Shown one piece after another: positions 21,373 to 63,305 of a stretch of 64,000 nt of DNA. This stretch comes from Dehalococcoidia bacterium (lineage in GTDB: Bacteria; Chloroflexota; Dehalococcoidia; Plut-88900), in contig CBDBLV010000004.1 of the NCBI GenBank assembly GCA_965207225.1, forward strand, positions 576,001-640,000, written 5' to 3'. Below the pieces are notes generated by a model. The model was given only the letters and a program-made list of their open reading frames with translations, was not told where the DNA came from and searched no databases. The translations under genes were made by a program, and so were the position numbers. The first letter of the stretch is position 1, and every line of letters starts with the position of its first letter.

Positions 21373-21451
21373 AACAGCAACCCTAAGATGCCGGTTTCCT
21401 GAGGAACGTTCGGAAAGGAGGGCAAGAAGCAGACTCAAAGAAAAAAGGCAC

Positions 21452-21568
21452 CCGGCGGCGACCTATTTTCCGCGGAGAGTTGCCCCTCTAGTATCGTCGG
21501 CGCAGAGGTGTTTCACTTCCGTGTTCGGAATGAGAACGGGTGGGCCCACCTCGCTATAGCCACCGCAG
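21452..21568 (-). rRNA. rrf: 5S rRNA, unlinked from 23S
   Basis: Reverse complement GGTGGCTATAGCG..CACCCGTTCTCATTCCGAACACGGAAGTGAA..GCGCCGACGATACT..GGAAAATAGGTCGCCGCC; flanking AAAGGCAC/GTGCCTTT stem and U-tract. Confidence 0.95.
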
Positions 21569-21616: not shown

Positions 21617-21787
21617 GGGCTTGTGTTCGTTCCGGAGGTTGGCGACATGCTAAGTCTCTATTCAGTTGTGGGGGGTGGGGTTTTGGTTGAACGTTGATTG
21701 AACTCGTAGCTGGTTTGATTGAATGACGCCTAAAGGGATTGCTGAGAATTTCGCGTGGTGCGGGGAGGGGATGCCTCCAGCCCCGCG

Positions 21788-21905
21788 GGGGAACCCTCAC
21801 CCCCTTGGTCCCCCTCTCCCTTGGGGCCTTAAAGGGAGAGGGGGAGAGAAGAACAGAGGAAGAGGTTGGCGCTGCAGCGCCAACCTCTTCCTCTAGTTCA
21901 GTACT
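21788..21905 (-). repeat. Variable-palindrome repeat, copy B
   Basis: Perfect 40-bp palindrome 21855-21894 with the same flanks as copy A. Confidence 0.8.
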
Positions 21906-22036: not shown

Positions 22037-22495
22037 GGCGATGGAAGACGCACCTGGAGCGGTGACCCCGCAGGGTGTCGCTGGCCCGGCCGTACGGGGT
22101 CGGTCAGTCCGGTCCCGCCTCACTGGACGGTCGGACTGCGGCCGGCAGAAGCCCCTTTCTTTAGTGTCGGCTTGGAGGCGTCCCAGGGCTGGGGACGTGT
22201 CTCCGCCGCTGCCTAGATCTGGCTGTGTAGGCGGACATACGGGTCCGTCATCCGTCACAGGTTCCAATAAACGGGTTAGCTGCGCTGTAAGTGAATACAG
22301 GAAGGGGAATGTCCAGAGTCATGTCCCCACGCAGGAGTACGGGGTTTCCAGTTCGCCGCCTGTATCCAGGAACCCGGAGTGGCGGTCTGCCCAGTTTCAT
22401 TTGCTGAAGCGGACGGAGAGCCGAGCGGTCCTCGGCTACGGGCGACCCCGTTCCGCTCCTTAGGTCGGGTTGCTCCAGGGCGTCTTTCCATCGCC
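22037..22495. ncRNA. Putative structured non-coding domain, cassette 2 (unknown family)
   Basis: Terminal IR GGCGATGGAAGACGCACCTGGAGC / GCTCCAGGGCGTCTTTCCATCGCC; ends and one internal hairpin shared with 58885-59332. Confidence 0.6.
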
Positions 22496-22832: not shown

Positions 22833-22861
22833 AATATAAAGCTCAAGTGTTTGCATGTCAA
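22833..22861 (-). promoter_or_regulatory. sigma70-like promoter of cassette 2
   Basis: TTGACA-17-TATATT. Confidence 0.7.
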
Positions 22862-22904
22862 GGGGTATGTTACGTTTATGGAGGGAATATCCCCCGGTCC
22901 CCCA

Positions 22905-23044
22905 GGAAACCCTCACCCCCTTGATCCCCCTCTCCCCCTCGAGGGACTCGGGGCAGGCTCTTAGGGCCTTTAAGGGAGAGGGGGAAAGAAGAACAGAGAC
23001 AGACGTGGGTGCGTTGCACCCACGTCTGTCTTTAGTTCAGTACT
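22905..23044 (-). repeat. Variable-palindrome repeat, copy C (with nested short insert)
   Basis: 16-bp perfect stem AGACAGACGTGGGTGC-GTT-GCACCCACGTCTGTCT, same flanks. Confidence 0.8.
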
Positions 23045-23064
23045 GAGGGGACAGAACCCCGCCC

Positions 23065-23357
23065 CAGATTCCTCGCGGGGCATCGGAATGACAGTGAGGG
23101 GTGTGATTGGCTATGGAGGGATGCGACGGGTCGGCAGGATGTGGGCCTCGCCCCGCTCATACTTCGAGGGCCTCAGCACGAGCGGCCCCACCCCAGGGCA
23201 ATCCTTTGTGATTGCCGCTACGCGGGAGGGGATACCCCCAGCTCCACGGGATGGATTCCCGATCGGAGTCGGGAATGACGGATGTGAGGAGGGATGCCAG
23301 GGGTGAGGGACGTGAGTGGGCAAGTCCTAGATTCCTCGCGGGGCATCGGAATGACAG
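23065..23357 (-). repeat. Cluster of REP-like repeats upstream of cassette 2
   Basis: AGATTCCTCGCGGGGCATCGGAATGACAG twice; GGATTCCCGA..TCGGGAATGAC; CCGCTC..GAGCGG. Confidence 0.75.
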
Positions 23358-56014: not shown

Positions 56015-57417
56015 GGGGCGTCGGCCTGGCGATAATCGGGGCGGGGCCCGCGGGGTTGTCGGCGGCGATTGCCGCGGCGAAATGCGGGCTGCGGCCAGTG
56101 GTGATTGACGAAAACCCAATGCCGGGAGGTCAGATATTCCGGCAGCTTCCGCGGGAGTTCCAGGTTGAGCTGCCGGAAGCGCTCGGCCTCACCTACGAAA
56201 AGGGTCAGAAGCTACTTACTCGGGCCTATGATGCGAATATAGAGCTGAAGCTGGGGACGACTGTATGGGGACTGTTCGATCCACTCACCCTTGGCCTGGA
56301 GTGCGATGGCAAGGCCGAGTCGCTTCAGTGCGGGGCCCTCGTTCTGGCCACGGGCGGCTATGACCGTGCGATCCCGTTTCCCGGTTGGACGCTGCCTGGG
56401 GTGATGACGTTGGGAGGTGCACAGACCTTGGTGAAGAACCAGAGAATGCTGCCTGGCAGGAAGATCATATTGTCGGGGTCGGGGCCGTTTTTACTGCCGG
56501 TGACGTCGCAGTTGGTGGAAGCAGGGGCGAACATCGTAGCCGTACTGGAAGCTTCGAAGCCGATGGGTTGGCTTCCAAGAGTGTCTGCGTTGTGGGGCCA
56601 GTGGGACCGGTTCCGGGAAGGTTGGGACTACCTGAAGCCACTGTTGAAAGCTCGGGTTGGGGTACGGTTTGGACAAGCGGTGATCGAGGCCTGGGGCAAG
56701 GAAAAGGTGGAGGGGGTGGTGACGGCATCCCTGGACGATGACTGGCGCCCCATAGCCGGTACTGAGAGGACGATATTGGTCGATGCCGTGGCTGTTGGAT
56801 ACGGGTTCTCCGTAAACACGCAACTCTCGCGGCTGTGCCGGTGCGAGCACCAGTTCAAGAAGGGATACGGGGGTTGGACGGTCAAAGTGGATAGCAGGCA
56901 AGGGACCTCTGTGGCCAAGGTGTTTGCGGCGGGAGAGACGACGGGAATCGGAGGGTCTGACATAGCGGCAGCGGAGGGATCGATTGCTGGATACTCGGCG
57001 GCTCAAGCCCTGGGGATGATATCGGAATCGGAAGCAAGGGCGCGACAGAAGCCGTACCTGGAAAGGCTGCGGAAGCTCCGCCCCTTCGCGCGGATGATGG
57101 CCGACTTGTTCAGCCCTCGGGACGGCTTATTCAATCTTACGTCGCCTGAAACAGTGGTCTGCCGGTGCGAAGAGGTTACAGCGGCGCAAATTCACGAGGC
57201 CATTGACAACGGGGCAAGTGACCTGACGGGCGTGAAGTCGAGGACACGGGCGGGGATGGGGATGTGCCAGGGCAGGGTGTGCGGGGCTTCGGTGGCGACG
57301 CTGGTGGCCCGACGGACGAGTCGCTGGCAGGGGGAGGTTGGCGCCTTCTCTGGCAGGCCCATAGTGAAACCCGTGTCGATGGGGGCACTAGCCAAGATGG
57401 GGCGAGGCGAATCGTGA
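56011..57417 (+). CDS. FAD/NAD(P) oxidoreductase with BFD-like 2Fe-2S, HcnB/OoxA-like
   Basis: GAGPAG, PFPGWTLPG, CRCEEV, GMGMCQGRVC; ATGA coupling. Confidence 0.9.
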   Translation: MRGVGLAIIGAGPAGLSAAIAAAKCGLRPVVIDENPMPGGQIFRQLPREFQVELPEALGLTYEKGQKLLTRAYDANIELKLGTTVWGLFDPLTLGLECDGKAESLQCGALVLATGGYDRAIPFPGWTLPGVMTLGGAQTLVKNQRMLPGRKIILSGSGPFLLPVTSQLVEAGANIVAVLEASKPMGWLPRVSALWGQWDRFREGWDYLKPLLKARVGVRFGQAVIEAWGKEKVEGVVTASLDDDWRPIAGTERTILVDAVAVGYGFSVNTQLSRLCRCEHQFKKGYGGWTVKVDSRQGTSVAKVFAAGETTGIGGSDIAAAEGSIAGYSAAQALGMISESEARARQKPYLERLRKLRPFARMMADLFSPRDGLFNLTSPETVVCRCEEVTAAQIHEAIDNGASDLTGVKSRTRAGMGMCQGRVCGASVATLVARRTSRWQGEVGAFSGRPIVKPVSMGALAKMGRGES

Positions 57418-58568
57418 GTCCTGGCGCAACAACTGTGGATGCTGTGGTGGTGGGTGGGGGCATAGTCGGGACTTCCACGGCGTATCACCTGACCAAGATG
57501 GGGGCGAAGGTTGCCCTGTTGGAGCGCGGTGCGATCGCATCCGGAACCTCGGGGGCGTGCGACGGGCAGATATTGATAGCGGACCGGCACCCGGGCCCCG
57601 AGCTTGAGCTGGGCAAGCTGGCCGCACGCCGGTGGAAAGACCTCGCACAAGAGCTGCCCTTTGACGTGGAATACGAGGCAAACGGCAGCACTTTGATAGC
57701 CGAGGTGGAGGAAGATCTAGAGGTCTTGAGGAAGCTGGTAGATAACCTGCAAAGGGAGTCGGTGGAGGCGGAACTTGTTGATGGGCGTGCGGCGAGAGAG
57801 CTGGAGCCCAACTTGGCTCAGGACATACCGGGCCTCGCCTTCTTCCCGAGTCACGGACAGGTACAGCCGCAACTCGCCTCGTGGGCAATGGCAGAGGCCG
57901 CGAGACTCAGGGGGGCTGACGTCAGGCCTTACACACCCGTTACGGCGATCGAGCAGGATGATAATGGGAGGATCTCGGGGGTTGTGGCTGGAGAACAGAG
58001 ATTTTCAACGCCCGTAGTGGTGTGCGCGGCTGGGGCATGGAGCTCGACGATTGGGGAGATGGTGGGAGTAGATGTTCCTGTAACGCCGAGGCGAGGGCAC
58101 ATACTGGTCTCGGAGCCTGCGCCGCCGATAATCAAGCATGCGGCCATGGAGGCATCCTACACCCGGACGATAGATGCGGACGAGTCGGCGCTGGTGGTGG
58201 CGTGCGTAATCGAACACACCAAGAGCGGGCCCATGCTGTTCGGGAGCAGCCGAGAGTTCATCGGGTTTGATGGGAACGAACAGATGGCGGCCGTGACCGG
58301 CATAGCGGCGAGGGCGGTGCGTTTCTTCCCGGCGCTGGCCGGAGTGCAGATCATCCGGTGCTACACGGGATTCAGGCCGTACACCGAGGATCACCTGCCG
58401 ATCCTGGGGGCATGCGACGAAGTGCCGGGTTTCTACCTGAACACGGGTCACGAGGGCGGCGGAATCTGCATGGGGCCGGCGTCCGGGATGTTGGTGGCGC
58501 AGATGGTGTCGGGGGAGGAGACGGATATCCCGATGGAGGCGTACAACATCGCGAGGTTTGTGCAGTAG
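57414..58568 (+). CDS. FAD-dependent oxidoreductase (DAO family), HcnC/OoxB-like
   Basis: VGGGIVG, AAGAWS, GFRPY, GHEG; GTGA coupling. Confidence 0.9.
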   Translation: MSPGATTVDAVVVGGGIVGTSTAYHLTKMGAKVALLERGAIASGTSGACDGQILIADRHPGPELELGKLAARRWKDLAQELPFDVEYEANGSTLIAEVEEDLEVLRKLVDNLQRESVEAELVDGRAARELEPNLAQDIPGLAFFPSHGQVQPQLASWAMAEAARLRGADVRPYTPVTAIEQDDNGRISGVVAGEQRFSTPVVVCAAGAWSSTIGEMVGVDVPVTPRRGHILVSEPAPPIIKHAAMEASYTRTIDADESALVVACVIEHTKSGPMLFGSSREFIGFDGNEQMAAVTGIAARAVRFFPALAGVQIIRCYTGFRPYTEDHLPILGACDEVPGFYLNTGHEGGGICMGPASGMLVAQMVSGEETDIPMEAYNIARFVQ

Positions 58569-58884
58569 AGGCGGCAGTGACTGCCTAGTCGGGAGTGGTC
58601 TGCCAGCGGTGCTGATTGCCCTCGTTCCGAGGAAGTGGTTTTTGATTGTTTTGCGGATTCAGGCACGGCTTTGATTGTTTAAGGAAAAAATCTTCATTTG
58701 CCTGTTCACCCTCGCCCCGCACCGCCCCTGGATTCCCGACTTCTCGGGAATGACGAGTAGAGGGGGATGGATTCCGGTTCGGGGGTGGGAGTGACGGGTT
58801 AGATGGGTGGGGATGATTGTGGGGGAGGTGGGGTTGTTTGGTTGTGGGGTCTGGGTTTGCATTTTGTCTGTTGGGTTTTGGGTC

Positions 58885-59332
58885 GGCGATGGAAGACGCT
58901 GTCCGGACTTTGACCCTGTTCCTATCCAGGCAGCTTGTAGGTGTCCCGGGGTCGGGGGACACCTGCCGCCGGCAATTGCTATGCCTCCACGTACTAAGTA
59001 CGGGCTTGCACGCCACACAGGCCGCGAGCAATCGCCAAGCGTCCTCGTACCAAGCAAGTACGGGCCGCAGGCCACTTACGCCGGTGAGTTCAACCGGCCA
59101 GGCCCAGCTCCCTGAGAGAGCGGCAGCATTGGGCCGCCGTCGAAACGGCTTTGTCTTGCCCTGCCGCCAGAGCGCATCTAGGCGCTCGGCCCGCCTCAAA
59201 CGACGTCGAAAGGACTCGCAGGGGGCCGGCCTCGACCCTCACGTATAAGAGGGGAGGCCAAGGCCTCTACCCTCATGCACTGAGGGGGAGGCCGGACGGG
59301 AACGGTGTAGACCAGAGCGTCTATCCATCGCC
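58885..59332. ncRNA. Putative structured non-coding domain, cassette 3 (unknown family)
   Basis: Terminal IR GGCGATGGAAGACGCT / AGCGTCTATCCATCGCC enclosing about nine hairpins; homologous ends to cassette 2. Confidence 0.6.
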
Positions 59333-59435
59333 TGGAAGACCAGGGAAGAGTGCATGGGACCCTGTGGGGTCGGGTGGGCTTCCCCGGTTTTTTGGTTCCC
59401 CCTTTGGATATGAATAACAGTTCGAAACTGAGGAC

Positions 59436-59463
59436 AGTTTAGCACGATTGTAATAGGGGTCAA
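59436..59463 (-). promoter_or_regulatory. sigma70-like promoter of cassette 3
   Basis: TTGACC-16-TAAACT with TG extension; AAACTG-AGGA-CAGTTT IR overlaps the -10. Confidence 0.65.
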
Positions 59464-59509
59464 GGGGTTTTGGCGTGGTTTTTGGGGGACATAGGCGGCG
59501 GGTCGGCCA

Positions 59510-59745
59510 GTGTGGGTCGCCCCACCCCAGGGCGACCCGCCGGTCGCCCCTACGGGGGAGACGAGCGCGGGTGGCGTCCAGTGTGCCCACTAGGGGCACC
59601 CCTACGAGGGATGGGTGTCCCCCCGATTTCACACAGGCAGGCCAGGGTCGGGAATGGCGGATAGGGGGCAGGAGGCGCATGGCAAGGGGCGGGGTTGGTT
59701 TGGGGCGGGGCGCTACGGATTCCTCGCAGGGCCTCGGAATGGGAC
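59510..59745 (-). repeat. GTAG-type and other REP-like repeats upstream of cassette 3
   Basis: GGGCGACC-cgcc-GGTCGCCCCTAC, GTGCCC-acta-GGGGCACCCCTAC, GGATTCCTCGCAGGGCCTCGGAATG. Confidence 0.7.
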
Positions 59746-59805
59746 ACGAGAGGGCGCCGGGATGGGACAGGTTGGGTGGACAGAGTGGAGTAGAATCGGG
59801 GTGTT

Positions 59806-60870
59806 ATGAATAGCAAAGTAGAGATTTTGACGGCTGGAAGCTGGAACACGCGAAGAGTGGCGGACCATGCCAAACTCGTGGAGGAAGGAGGCTGGCACGG
59901 TATTGGGATTTTCGATTCCCAGAACCTGGGAGGGGATACCTACGTTTCAATGACACTGGCGGCCGCGGCGACTGAGCGGATAGAGCTTAGCACGGATGTT
60001 ACCAACCCCCTGTCCCGACACCCGGCGGTAACGGCGGGCGCCATTGCGAGCGTACAGGAGATATCGGGGGGCAGGGCGGTGCTGGGCATCGGGCGAGGGG
60101 ACTCGGCGCTGGCGTATGTAGGGCATGCGCCCGTCTATGCAAACTTCTTTGAGAATTACCTGAAGGCGCTGCAGTCGTACCTAAGTGGAGGTAGCGTAGC
60201 TTTCGATGAACTGACCCACTGGCGAGGCATGGCGCCCCATGTAGACACTCTGAAGCTGGCGGACACCCCGGATGACAGCCGACTCGTGTGGCTTGACCCC
60301 AACGACAAGAAGGTTCCCGTGGCCGTCGCAGCGAGCGGGCCAAGGGTGATCGGCGCGGCGGCGAGGCACGCCGACATTATCATGTTTGCCTTGGGCGCAG
60401 ACATGGGAAGGCTCAAGTGGGGATTGGAGCAAGCCCGGGCGGCGCGTCGGGAGGCGGGCCTGGACCCGGACGGAATCCGATACGGAGCGTATCTCAACAT
60501 TGTTTGCCATCCCCAGATGGAGGTGGCCCGGGAGCTGATCACCTTCCTGGATACCTTCGTGCGGTTCTCAGTGATGCACGGAAAGACGTACGGGCCCGTT
60601 ACCCGGCAAGAGCAAGAAGTGCTGTCGGGCGTCCACAAGGCCTTCAATATGCGGGACCACAGCGACTCAGGGGTCCCGCCGGCGGAGTTCGTAGACAAAT
60701 TCGCTATTGTCGGGCCACCGGAAACTTGCATCAGACGAATCCAGGATGTCATCAGCCTGGGGATAGACAGGATCGTAGTGCTGGGGCCTACGGTGGATGA
60801 GAACACCGGAGACAAGAAACTGGCTGCAGACCTGATCGTCAGCGAAGTGCTGCCGGCTTTTTCGGGATAG
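59806..60870 (+). CDS. LLM class (Mer-like, possibly F420-dependent) oxidoreductase
   Basis: DSQN, VTNPLSRHP, LGIGRGDSA, AASGPR. Confidence 0.92.
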   Translation: MNSKVEILTAGSWNTRRVADHAKLVEEGGWHGIGIFDSQNLGGDTYVSMTLAAAATERIELSTDVTNPLSRHPAVTAGAIASVQEISGGRAVLGIGRGDSALAYVGHAPVYANFFENYLKALQSYLSGGSVAFDELTHWRGMAPHVDTLKLADTPDDSRLVWLDPNDKKVPVAVAASGPRVIGAAARHADIIMFALGADMGRLKWGLEQARAARREAGLDPDGIRYGAYLNIVCHPQMEVARELITFLDTFVRFSVMHGKTYGPVTRQEQEVLSGVHKAFNMRDHSDSGVPPAEFVDKFAIVGPPETCIRRIQDVISLGIDRIVVLGPTVDENTGDKKLAADLIVSEVLPAFSG

Positions 60871-61071: not shown

Positions 61072-62136
61072 ATGAGCAGCAAAGTGGAATTGCTAGCGCC
61101 CGTCGAACCAAGCATCCGGTGGGTTGCAGAGTACGCAAAAAGGGTAGAGGACGCGGGCTGGGACGGAGTCTCCATCTACGACTCCCAGAACATGACCGCC
61201 GACACCTTTGTGGCGATGACTCTGGCGGCGATGGCGACGGAGCGAATCGAAATCAGTACGGATGTAACCAACCCTCTAACGCGGCACCCTGTAGTTGCCG
61301 CGGGCGCGATTGCGAGCTTGCAGCAAGTGTCGGGTGGGAGGGCGGTGCTTGGGATTGGGAGGGGAGACTCGGCGCTGGCACACGTCGGGCATGCGCCGGT
61401 ATATACGAGTTTCTTCGAGAACTACCTGAAAGCGCTGCAAGCATACCTGAGTGGGGGATGCGTGGCATTCGACGAGCTAACGTTCGGCCGGTGGATGGCG
61501 CCCCACGTGGATACTCTGAAACTGGCAGAAGCGCCACGGGACAGCCGGCTGACATGGCTCGATCTCGGCGACAAGAAGGCGCCTGTGGCTGTTGCGGCCT
61601 CGGGGCCACGGGTGATTGGGGCGGCGGCGCGACAAGCCGACATAGTGATGCTTGCCCTGGGGGCGGATATCGACAGGTTGAAGTGGGGCCTGGAACAAGC
61701 GCGGAAGGCCAGAAGCGACGCGGGGCTGGACCCCGATGGGGTGAGATTCGGGGCTTACGTGAACGTCGTCTGCCATCCGGATGTGCAGGCCGCCCGAGAA
61801 ATTATCTTCTTCCTGGACGGTTTTATGCGGTTCTCCGTTATGCATGGCAAGACGTATGGACCAATGAGACAGGATGACCGGGAGGTGCTTTCGAAGATAC
61901 CGACGGTATATAACGTGAGCAAACACGCCATGACAGGGTCCCTTCCGGCGGAGTTTGTGGACCGGTACGCGATAGTCGGGCGTCCGGAGGAGTGCATAAG
62001 GCGGCTTCGACAGATCATTGACCTGGGGATAGACCGGATTCTTGTGTTCGGCCCTACGGTGGATGAAGTTGAGGGAGATAGAAAGGTGGCGGCAGACCTG
62101 ATGGTGAAGAAAGTGCTCCCGGCTTTTGGGAAATAG
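61072..62136 (+). CDS. LLM class (Mer-like) oxidoreductase, tandem paralog
   Basis: Same motifs as 59806 gene. Confidence 0.92.
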   Translation: MSSKVELLAPVEPSIRWVAEYAKRVEDAGWDGVSIYDSQNMTADTFVAMTLAAMATERIEISTDVTNPLTRHPVVAAGAIASLQQVSGGRAVLGIGRGDSALAHVGHAPVYTSFFENYLKALQAYLSGGCVAFDELTFGRWMAPHVDTLKLAEAPRDSRLTWLDLGDKKAPVAVAASGPRVIGAAARQADIVMLALGADIDRLKWGLEQARKARSDAGLDPDGVRFGAYVNVVCHPDVQAAREIIFFLDGFMRFSVMHGKTYGPMRQDDREVLSKIPTVYNVSKHAMTGSLPAEFVDRYAIVGRPEECIRRLRQIIDLGIDRILVFGPTVDEVEGDRKVAADLMVKKVLPAFGK

Positions 62137-62237: not shown

Positions 62238-63305
62238 ATGAGCGACAAGATTGAACTTTGGACGATCGCGCTTCCGGATGTGCGCCTGATAATGGAACAT
62301 GCCCGGAAGGCAGAGGAGGCGGGGTGGGACGGCTTATCCATCGCCGATGTTCAAAGCGCCTCCGGTGACATGTACGTGGCGATGACGCTCGCGGCGATGG
62401 CGACGGAGCGGATCCTGATTGGCTCGGACGTTACGAACCCACTAACCCGGCACCCGGTGATCACGGCCGGGGCAATCGCCAGCGTGCAGCAAGTGTCGGG
62501 TGGGCGGGCGGTGCTGGGTATCGGGAGGGGAGACTCGGCGCTGGCGCACGTGGGGCGCGCGCCAGTCTACACGAAGATCTTCGAGAGCTACCTCAAGGCT
62601 TTACAGGCTTACCTGAGGGGCGACGGCGTACCTTTCGAAGAGCTCACCTTTGGCCGGGGGATGGCGCCGCACGTGGATACGCTGGAACTGGCAGAGGCTC
62701 CGGATGACAGCCGACTCACCTGGCTCGAACCCGAGGACAAGAAAGTGCCCGTAGCGGTTTCGGCCTCCGGGCCGAAGGTAATAGCAGCGGCGGCGCGACA
62801 TTCAGACGTAGTGATGTTCGCAGTGGGCGCCGACCTCGGGAGACTGGAGTGGGGAATGGAGCAGGTGCGAAAGGCGCGAGAGGAGTCGGGGCTGGAACCC
62901 GACGGAATCCGCTACGGTGTCTATCTCAGTGTGGCCTGCCATCCCGACATCGAAGCGGCCAGGAACCTCGTGCCCGAGCTGGCAGCGACGGCCCGCTTTT
63001 CAAACATGCACGGGAGGGCAAACGGGCCTGTGGCAGAGCAGGACCAAGAAGTGCTTACAAGGGTGCACCAGAGCTACGATGTACGCAACCACGGCGCGTC
63101 GCTCAAGCTGCCTGCGGAGTTCGTGGACCGGTATGCGATAGTCGGGGCTCCGGAGGAGTGTATAAGGCGGATTCGCCAAGTTGTTGATATGGGTTTTGAG
63201 AGGATAGTGGTGTTTGGTCCGACGGTGGATGCAGTCGACGGGGACAAGAAGCTGGCGGCAAACCTGATGGTGAAAGAGGTGCTGCCGGCTTTTGCGGGGT
63301 CATAG
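62238..63305 (+). CDS. LLM class (Mer-like) oxidoreductase, tandem paralog
   Basis: Same motifs as 59806 gene. Confidence 0.92.
   Translation: MSDKIELWTIALPDVRLIMEHARKAEEAGWDGLSIADVQSASGDMYVAMTLAAMATERILIGSDVTNPLTRHPVITAGAIASVQQVSGGRAVLGIGRGDSALAHVGRAPVYTKIFESYLKALQAYLRGDGVPFEELTFGRGMAPHVDTLELAEAPDDSRLTWLEPEDKKVPVAVSASGPKVIAAAARHSDVVMFAVGADLGRLEWGMEQVRKAREESGLEPDGIRYGVYLSVACHPDIEAARNLVPELAATARFSNMHGRANGPVAEQDQEVLTRVHQSYDVRNHGASLKLPAEFVDRYAIVGAPEECIRRIRQVVDMGFERIVVFGPTVDAVDGDKKLAANLMVKEVLPAFAGS

Follow-up and report, generated by a model that had tools for sequence, protein, structure and literature searches.

The hairpin-rich DNA at positions 58885–59332 belongs to a dispersed, multicopy family of repeat units in one Dehalococcoidia genus. 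All positions refer to the window, that is, the whole 64-kb stretch of DNA that was analysed, and the core under study comprises 448 nt. The original prediction had described this stretch as one domain. Instead, it belongs as one unit to a dispersed family of repeats, whose conserved parts extend beyond 58885–59332 on both sides. We regard it as fairly probable that the unit is a self-spreading, transcribed unit of structured RNA, dispersed, restricted to the genus and read from the minus strand.

If the units are transcribed as proposed, the genus would spend about 1% of its genome on roughly forty promoter-driven RNAs of 200–550 nt. These RNAs would have one clamp helix in common and unrelated, individually conserved folds, as in a natural modular RNA expression scaffold. 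To our knowledge, such an architecture has not been described for any bacterial RNA family or repeat element.

Copy number and core classes

The copy number was determined in the genome that contains the window (G000, 92% complete) and is a lower bound: at least 39 units, or 39–47 when extra arm pairs are counted. BLAST with the left flank alone found 39 places, all of which carry both arms of the closing helix with no more than one mismatch to the arm motifs. An exact-arm scan added eight arm pairs. Some of the 39 units carry a second type of arm, with changes on both sides of the distal helix. For the stem type of the unit under study, a search allowing one mismatch gave 17 5′ arms and 14 3′ arms, which form 14 pairs with sizes of 198–553 nt; three of the 5′ arms were without a partner.

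The 39 interiors were clustered into 10 unrelated core classes. In a BLAST comparison with 61 related genomes, full-length homologues of the core under study occurred only as four copies in G008 (83–92% identical), four in G005 (84–85%) and two in G000, the second of which lies at C5:1654862–1655307. Different species within the genus have core classes in common; G000 lacks one further class. The left-flank search missed several arm-bounded elements of G000, with lengths of 348–354 nt (C3:167328–167681, C3:255807–256154, C5:1330718–1331071 and C5:1737119–1737472) or 464 nt (C5:1005080–1005543 and C5:1189888–1190351). Their outer arm sequence is that of the units, and they may be further classes with diverged scaffolds.

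Architecture of the unit

On the minus strand, a sigma70-type promoter at 59436–59463 is directed towards the core (TTGACC, a 16-nt spacer and TAAACT, with TG before the second hexamer). The leader of the presumed RNA follows at 59333–59435 and contains a palindrome near its start and a hairpin at 59340–59387, with arms CCAGGGAAG and CTTCCCCGG on the plus strand; in the RNA sense, an A-run at 59388–59393 precedes this hairpin. The hairpin-tiled core (58901–59316, minus strand) is enclosed by the closing helix P1. In the RNA sense, the 5′ arm of P1 lies at 59317–59332 and has one bulged base, and the 3′ arm lies at 58885–58900. Both arms were supported by the fold, the consensus fold and the listing of arm pairs. 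Beyond P1 stands a conserved C/A-rich, G-poor tail at 58809–58884 (minus strand), the left flank that recurs 39 times in the genome.

P1 comprises 16 bp and one bulge, and its outer 9 bp are near-invariant in all units. Its distal part exists in two forms, GACGC/GCGTC and GGTCC/GGACC, between which three pairs differ on both sides. The leader is conserved in other units of the family according to the flank alignment. The sense leader contains an exact AAGGAGG in 35 of the 39 units and AAGGGGG in the copy at 59333–59435; by eye, no start codon was seen behind the AAGGAGG motif. In the 80 nt past P1, this copy has 50% C and 5% G, and the mean of the 39 units is 42% C and 12% G. The template (plus) strand of the tail at 58809–58884 carries runs of three to four G with short T-rich spacers, a pattern that by eye has quadruplex-forming potential.

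In plus-strand order, the flank alignment gave a G/T-rich part of about 65–75 nt, the stem-closed core, a hairpin with a T-run, and one of three blocks, all of which form a near-consensus sigma70 promoter when read on the minus strand. The arms of the hairpin to the right of the core frame an optional inserted module, and the T-run comes after it.

The window contains a second unit at 22037–22495 (minus strand), in which the stem motif of 58885–59332 recurs at 22479–22495. The two units agree at their ends and over about 70 nt to each side, and differ in their interiors. The second unit has a core of a different class and the same closing helix, tail and leader, and its promoter, TTGACA-17-TATATT, lies at about 22833–22861. 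The genome's only 5S rRNA gene (21450–21567, minus strand) is on the same strand, about 470 nt downstream of this unit. The 5S gene is unlinked from the only 23S gene (C5:49658–52796), and a promoter-like TTGCGC-17-TAGAAT was seen by eye about 20 nt upstream of it.

Other repeats surround the units. Short palindromic repeats of the form GGATTCC...GGAATGAC (family D20) flank them at 58725–58755, 59714–59745, 23063–23094 and 23326–23357. In the DNA run X6, the contig depths in the bins at 58671–58837 add up to as much as about 7,000, which indicates that short palindromic modules are extremely abundant in that metagenome. Further common intergenic modules, such as a palindrome around GGGGAATATCCCCC and a block in which the arms GGGAGAGGGGG and CCCCCTCTCCC pair, occur at 21640–21900, at 22890–23020 and in the right flanks of many units. 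This mosaic of intergenic modules blurs the borders of the units.

Hairpins and folding of the core

The core lies in a 1,237-nt spacer between two plus-strand ORFs of metabolic type, at 57264–58568 and 59806–60870. The second of these ORFs is one of three tandem paralogues of 354–355 aa (59806–60870, 61072–62136 and 62238–63305), which are 68–79% alike at the DNA level (D4–D6 and D10). Another ORF family is repeated five to seven times elsewhere in the window (D1–D3, D7–D9 and D11).

The terminal stem pairs 58885–58900 with 59317–59332, both as read in the sequence and in the folds. Inside it, the following hairpins were read in the sequence: GTAGGTGTCCC/GGGACACCTGC at 58938–58966, GGCAATTGCT/AGCAATCGCC at 58972 and 59029, two CGTAC-loop-GTACG hairpins at 58990 and 59047, GCCGGT/ACCGGC at 59081, GGCCCA/TGGGCC at 59101, GCCGT-CGAA-ACGGC at 59136 and GAGCGC/GCGCTC at 59171. 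Twin GGCCTC..CCCTC-loop-GAGGG..GAGGCC hairpins at 59229 and 59263 are obvious tandem duplicates. The proposal that hairpins tile the core inside a terminal stem was therefore borne out, since each named hairpin is present in its place and the folds agree with it.

The folding energy of 58885–59332 was compared with dinucleotide-preserving shuffles (n = 100 per strand), as had been suggested with the proposal. The minimum free energy of the plus strand was −232.2 kcal/mol, against a shuffle mean of −186.1 (sd 5.55; z = −8.31), and that of the minus strand was −252.0 kcal/mol, against a mean of −195.4 (sd 6.09; z = −9.30). None of the 100 shuffles was as good on either strand. On the minus strand, the centroid structure of the core is identical to the minimum free energy structure, and the minus-sense consensus fold of ten homologues contains 149 pairs, with about two thirds of the bases paired. 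The sense strands of all 10 core classes gave z-scores from −2.8 to −11.6 (25 shuffles each).

Growth by duplication of hairpin modules, which had also been proposed, is plausible in view of the twin tandem hairpins and of three related core classes of 198–218, 305–307 and 446–448 nt, which have their basal helices in common and differ by internal blocks.

Conservation of stems

The ten copies of this core class were aligned in both senses, with a mean column identity of 91%. Of the columns paired on both strands, 18 of 200 are variable, whereas the figure for the other columns is 116 of 262 (Fisher p = 7e-18; ten copies, three species), a contrast to be read with the caveat that alifold favours conserved columns when picking pairs. 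Variation was seen in 85 of the 135 columns that are unpaired on both strands, and the hairpin loops are almost saturated. A single sequence alone yields the same hairpins as the alifold consensus. The stem/loop contrast holds in all seven clusters tested.

In this core class, RNAalifold with the ten copies found no compensated pair among the 149 pairs of the minus sense and one among the 140 pairs of the plus sense. A count of the pairs gave 98.6% of cells paired and no double change, and all 500 shuffles reached the observed covariation. Because compensatory change is absent from this class, the support for its fold comes from energy and from the stem/loop contrast, and these two cannot separate RNA hairpins from DNA hairpins. 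Four other clusters contain compensated pairs, 14 in total (6, 2, 2 and 4).

Coding potential and known RNA families

No frame is open across the whole core 58885–59332. A frame that starts at an ATG in the stem extends over 119 aa in this copy and over 65 aa in the paralogue that is 92% identical, and the corresponding frame of the second cassette in the window is 140 aa long there and 10 aa long in its paralogue. Single-base indels separate copies of this core class. All eight frame pieces of at least 45 aa were without a Pfam or PHROG match at E 0.1, the best values being not below E 0.3 for Pfam and E 0.7 for PHROG. The coding reading of the core was rejected, with the ATG frame unconserved between paralogues and lacking a Pfam or PHROG match. 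A phage origin of this core was rejected as well, as blastn gave no match in 50,697 phage records.

These data also bear on the idea that the core is a decayed fragment of a protein-coding or phage-derived gene, with the hairpins as a by-product of G+C-rich sequence. Its support comes from other classes. When six-frame pieces of 12 class representatives were compared with the genome, two other core classes matched the ORF at C1:233687–235075 of G000 (L045:1188–2576) in the sense orientation, with 35% identity over 94 aa (E 1.7e-5) and 47% over 72 aa (E 2.3e-8). The middle part of this 462-aa ORF resembles these cores. The ORF itself weakly matches PHROG families of the terminase large subunit (E 1.5e-4 and 7.8e-4) and has no Pfam match below E 0.07. 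For the core under study, six-frame pieces gave no tblastn match in its own genome outside the units, and the frames are broken between close paralogues. Furthermore, substitutions track stems and loops instead of codons, and the comparison with dinucleotide-preserving shuffles shows that composition does not account for the fold. We consider a decayed gene very improbable for this core.

In Rfam 15 gathering mode, the only match in the whole window was the 5S rRNA at 21450–21567. The E-value mode applied to 58560–59820 gave two weak matches in the flanks and none on the core, and on 12 other units Rfam 15 gave only sub-threshold matches to miRNA-like hairpins in the flanks. Nothing pointed to a ribozyme, with no Rfam match to the self-cleaving ribozyme families even in E-value mode. 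The idea of a bacterial Y RNA was rejected because the TROVE domain (PF05731) has no match in the genome, whereas 2 of 14 controls gave one.

Promoter and strand

With the pattern TTGACA (at most one mismatch), a spacer of 16–18 nt and TAnnnT, a minus-sense promoter was found within 400 nt of the core in 38 of the 39 units. The other side gave one in 39, and random 400-nt windows gave 47 in 2000. For the copy with the promoter at 59436–59463, one site was found against 0.2 expected. Three promoter types occur, namely TTGACC-16-TAAACT in this copy, TTGACA-17-TATATT and TTGACA-17-TATCAT; their spacers differ, their hexamers are kept, and they combine with different core classes. In this core class, all ten copies (three species) have the promoter 100–149 nt from P1 with differing spacers, and the promoter type varies between copies.

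The functional strand is thus assigned to the minus strand on the basis of the sigma70-type promoter found there in nearly every unit, and the presumed RNA, as read from the sequence, is the minus strand. The original prediction had named two hints towards this strand. The promoter proved to be a family-wide feature; the UUCG loop did not stand, since it is not conserved in the homologues.

The prediction had left the strand open and had also called the G-U versus A-C evidence mixed, and this agrees with our counts. In pairs predicted on both strands, G-U and A-C columns numbered 7 and 5 in the ten copies (100 pairs), 12 and 5 in an 8-sequence set from this class, and 41 and 26 over seven clusters. 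The counts lean to the minus sense and are not decisive for the strand.

The opposite assignment would make the plus strand the functional RNA, composed of a G/U-rich leader, the core, and a hairpin with a U-run as an intrinsic terminator. On the plus strand, a textbook terminator-like hairpin with a T-run does follow the core closely (59366–59382, formed by the leader hairpin), and a hairpin arm with a T-run was found in 30 of the 39 units. Moreover, the plus strand of this copy folds well too, and 3 of the 10 classes have their more negative z-score on the plus strand. However, the sense strand has the more negative score in the other seven, this copy has the better free energy and z-score on the minus strand, the G-U counts lean to minus, and a promoter-like site upstream of a plus-strand RNA exists in a single unit. 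We give the plus-strand assignment very little weight. The leader hairpin with its T-run also fits that reading or control of read-through.

Occurrence and insertion sites

BLAST found the family in 9 of 61 genomes, namely G000 and all eight other members of its genus. It was found in none of three other genera of the same taxonomic family and in none of 49 genomes from other families of the class. Over the class as a whole, 9 of 401 genomes and 1 of 222 genera carry it. A 19-nt string of arm and flank occurs at 60 loci in 185,579 species genomes. The partner arm lies within 720 nt at 35 of these loci, all 35 from records titled 'Dehalococcoidia bacterium'. Among the 25 loci without a partner arm, 23 are in unrelated taxa and two have Dehalococcoidia or Chloroflexota titles. 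In JGI metagenome contigs, a 23-nt invariant stretch of this core class had no match; a second metagenome scan found eight loci with the arm of the commonest class.

The orthologous sites in two related genomes are empty. In G008, a spacer of about 130 nt without a unit separates the same two genes (93% and 97% identical), and in G007 (83% and 85%) the spacer measures 457 nt, again without a unit. The unit was therefore gained here or lost there recently. Its borders at this site cannot be set because the filled and empty spacers do not align. Flanking DNA is shared by only one pair among ten loci (G000b and G008c, 1,155 nt at 93%, with the element at 88%), and the copy at 58885–59332 has only the unit of about 600 nt in common with any other copy. 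Joints in the DNA runs X5 and X6 skip 58722–59530 or 58559–59779; these joints have short sides of 22–30 letters, may come from repeats and were left out of the evidence. Run X6, a sponge metagenome, contains a relative that is about 90% alike over the left flanking gene.

Inverted ends, many copies and polymorphic insertion are also expected of a MITE-like selfish DNA repeat. The P1 arms would then be terminal inverted repeats for a transposase acting in trans, the hairpins would be DNA palindromes or functionless, and transcription would be incidental. All units have inverted ends of 15–16 nt with the near-invariant outer 9 bp, they measure 198–553 bp without a conserved ORF, and at least 39–47 copies are present. 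Related genomes carry their copies at sites that are not homologous, the site is empty in a close relative, and the stem/loop contrast and fold scores are nearly strand-symmetric. Of the features of a MITE, terminal inverted repeats, small size, unconserved frames and many copies are present; conservation does not stop at the inverted repeats, and no autonomous relative with matching ends was seen.

Several observations weigh against a MITE. The conserved repeat extends well past the inverted ends into tail, leader and promoter, and the promoter is confined to one strand in nearly all units. No scaffold without a core was found in the genome, apart from one spurious candidate, which makes the cores unlike insertions into a repeated target, and this insertion model was rejected. 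By eye, no target-site duplication was seen beside the arms, where the flanks themselves are conserved unit sequence. Inspection of the genome also gave no arm pairs 0.7–5 kb apart that could represent an autonomous element. Ten unrelated interiors on one pair of ends are unusual as well. The Y1 transposase of REPIN/RAYT systems (PF01797) has no match in the 92% complete genome, whereas 6 of 14 control genomes gave one, and REPIN/RAYT was rejected. Overall, we judge a MITE-like repeat rather unlikely, although it is the most serious of the rivals. Even if the unit were only a MITE it would still be unusual, because of its strong, outward-independent promoter and its strongly selected hairpins.

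RNA library contigs

X23 is a metatranscriptome run recorded as RNA and kept as unstranded contigs, from a relative that is about 90% alike. One 223-nt contig of X23, with 15 differences and 2 gaps, covers 59056–59225 at a depth of 46.9. Three contigs of 56–60 nt lie on 59282–59335 at depths of 19–43, and another on 59311–59362. Loose ends at 58899 and 58908 lead from the stem into other core classes. On the flanking genes, X23 has one 158-nt contig of depth 4.4 at 60748–60858. In all, 22 of 30 bins of the 5-kb stretch are uncovered, including nearly all of both flanking genes, and absence from X23 is not evidence of silence. These contigs weakly hint that the unit is transcribed, given that they are unstranded, that the library may contain DNA and that the element is multicopy.

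Proposed role of the unit

Read from the minus strand, the unit most likely yields a stable non-coding RNA. The transcript would start at the unit's own strong sigma70-type promoter and would comprise a leader of about 100 nt with its hairpin, P1, the compact multi-hairpin core and a C-rich, G-poor, unstructured tail. The leader would be longer in units with extra modules, it may carry a 5′ stabiliser, and the AAGGAGG found there in most units would be an unused Shine-Dalgarno-like motif. Promoter, leader, P1 and tail form a common scaffold, and the core is one of at least 10 unrelated classes.

A C-rich, G-poor composition is typical of Rho loading sites. The tail may therefore be a candidate Rho loading site that ends transcription, or a 3′ end region. 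P1 and its extensions, with about 30 stacked pairs, may form an RNase III-type processing site or a binding site. Genes for Rho and for RNase III are both present in the genome. The near-invariant outer 9 bp of P1 across unrelated cores point to a sequence-specific reader, a protein or nuclease acting on RNA or DNA, which would handle all core classes alike. As this reader could act on DNA as well as on RNA, the MITE-like alternative stays alive. The units would multiply as DNA by some route and exchange modules by recombination.

A bolder extension is that the scaffold is a general platform, on which one clamp-specific factor processes, binds or mobilises many different cores, some of them captured from a phage terminase-like gene. 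We regard this extension as improbable. If true, it would describe a modular 'RNA cassette' system, for example of decoy or guide RNAs against phages, or alternatively a non-autonomous element whose spread depends on its own transcript.

Comparison with known systems

In the portions of the literature on Dehalococcoidia and Chloroflexi non-coding RNA and intergenic repeats that were available to us, nothing on such an element was found. Large structured non-coding RNAs of bacteria, such as OLE, GOLLD, ROOL, HEARO/omega RNA and raiA, were discovered by comparative genomics. The unit resembles them in its length of several hundred nucleotides, its intergenic position, its many hairpins inside a closing helix, its lack of a coding frame and a function that is not obvious from context. 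Unlike them, it matches no Rfam 15 covariance model even in E-value mode, it occurs in about 40 dispersed copies per genome with the promoter inside the repeat, and it places at least 10 unrelated cores on one scaffold within a single genus. The unit shares with non-coding RNA genes in general a promoter of its own on the RNA strand.

Two further systems have ends that pair around an RNA. In retron msr-msd and DRT-type non-coding RNAs, the ends are paired by inverted repeats, and here, too, a conserved helix joins the two ends of a structured RNA. In contrast to them, no reverse transcriptase gene stands beside the units and no stop-free frame crosses the core, and the retron/DRT assignment was rejected on these grounds; the six matches to PF00078 fall in four genes on contigs C2 and C5, and the unit lies on contig C4. 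In rRNA operons, sequences on the 5′ and 3′ sides of 16S and 23S form processing stems that are RNase III sites. P1 is similar as a long helix formed from the flanks of a structured RNA downstream of a strong promoter, but it encloses an RNA other than rRNA, exists in dozens of copies, and its cleavage is putative.

Among repeats, the Correia elements (CREE) of Neisseria, BOX of pneumococci, ERIC and BIME/REP include some that have promoters and that, once transcribed, are substrates of RNase III. By description, the family shares with CREE, BOX, ERIC and BIME the multicopy, intergenic and modular character, pairing inverted ends, and presence or absence between close strains, and it is likewise embedded among other short palindromic repeats. 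It differs from them in its much larger size of about 0.65–1 kb, in the promoter, leader and tail conserved outside the inverted ends, in stems that are kept while loops drift, and in unrelated cores set in the same frame; no target duplication was seen, and the genome is without a Y1 transposase. The family therefore combines traits of transcribed mosaic repeats with those of large structured RNAs, and it is not a new category.
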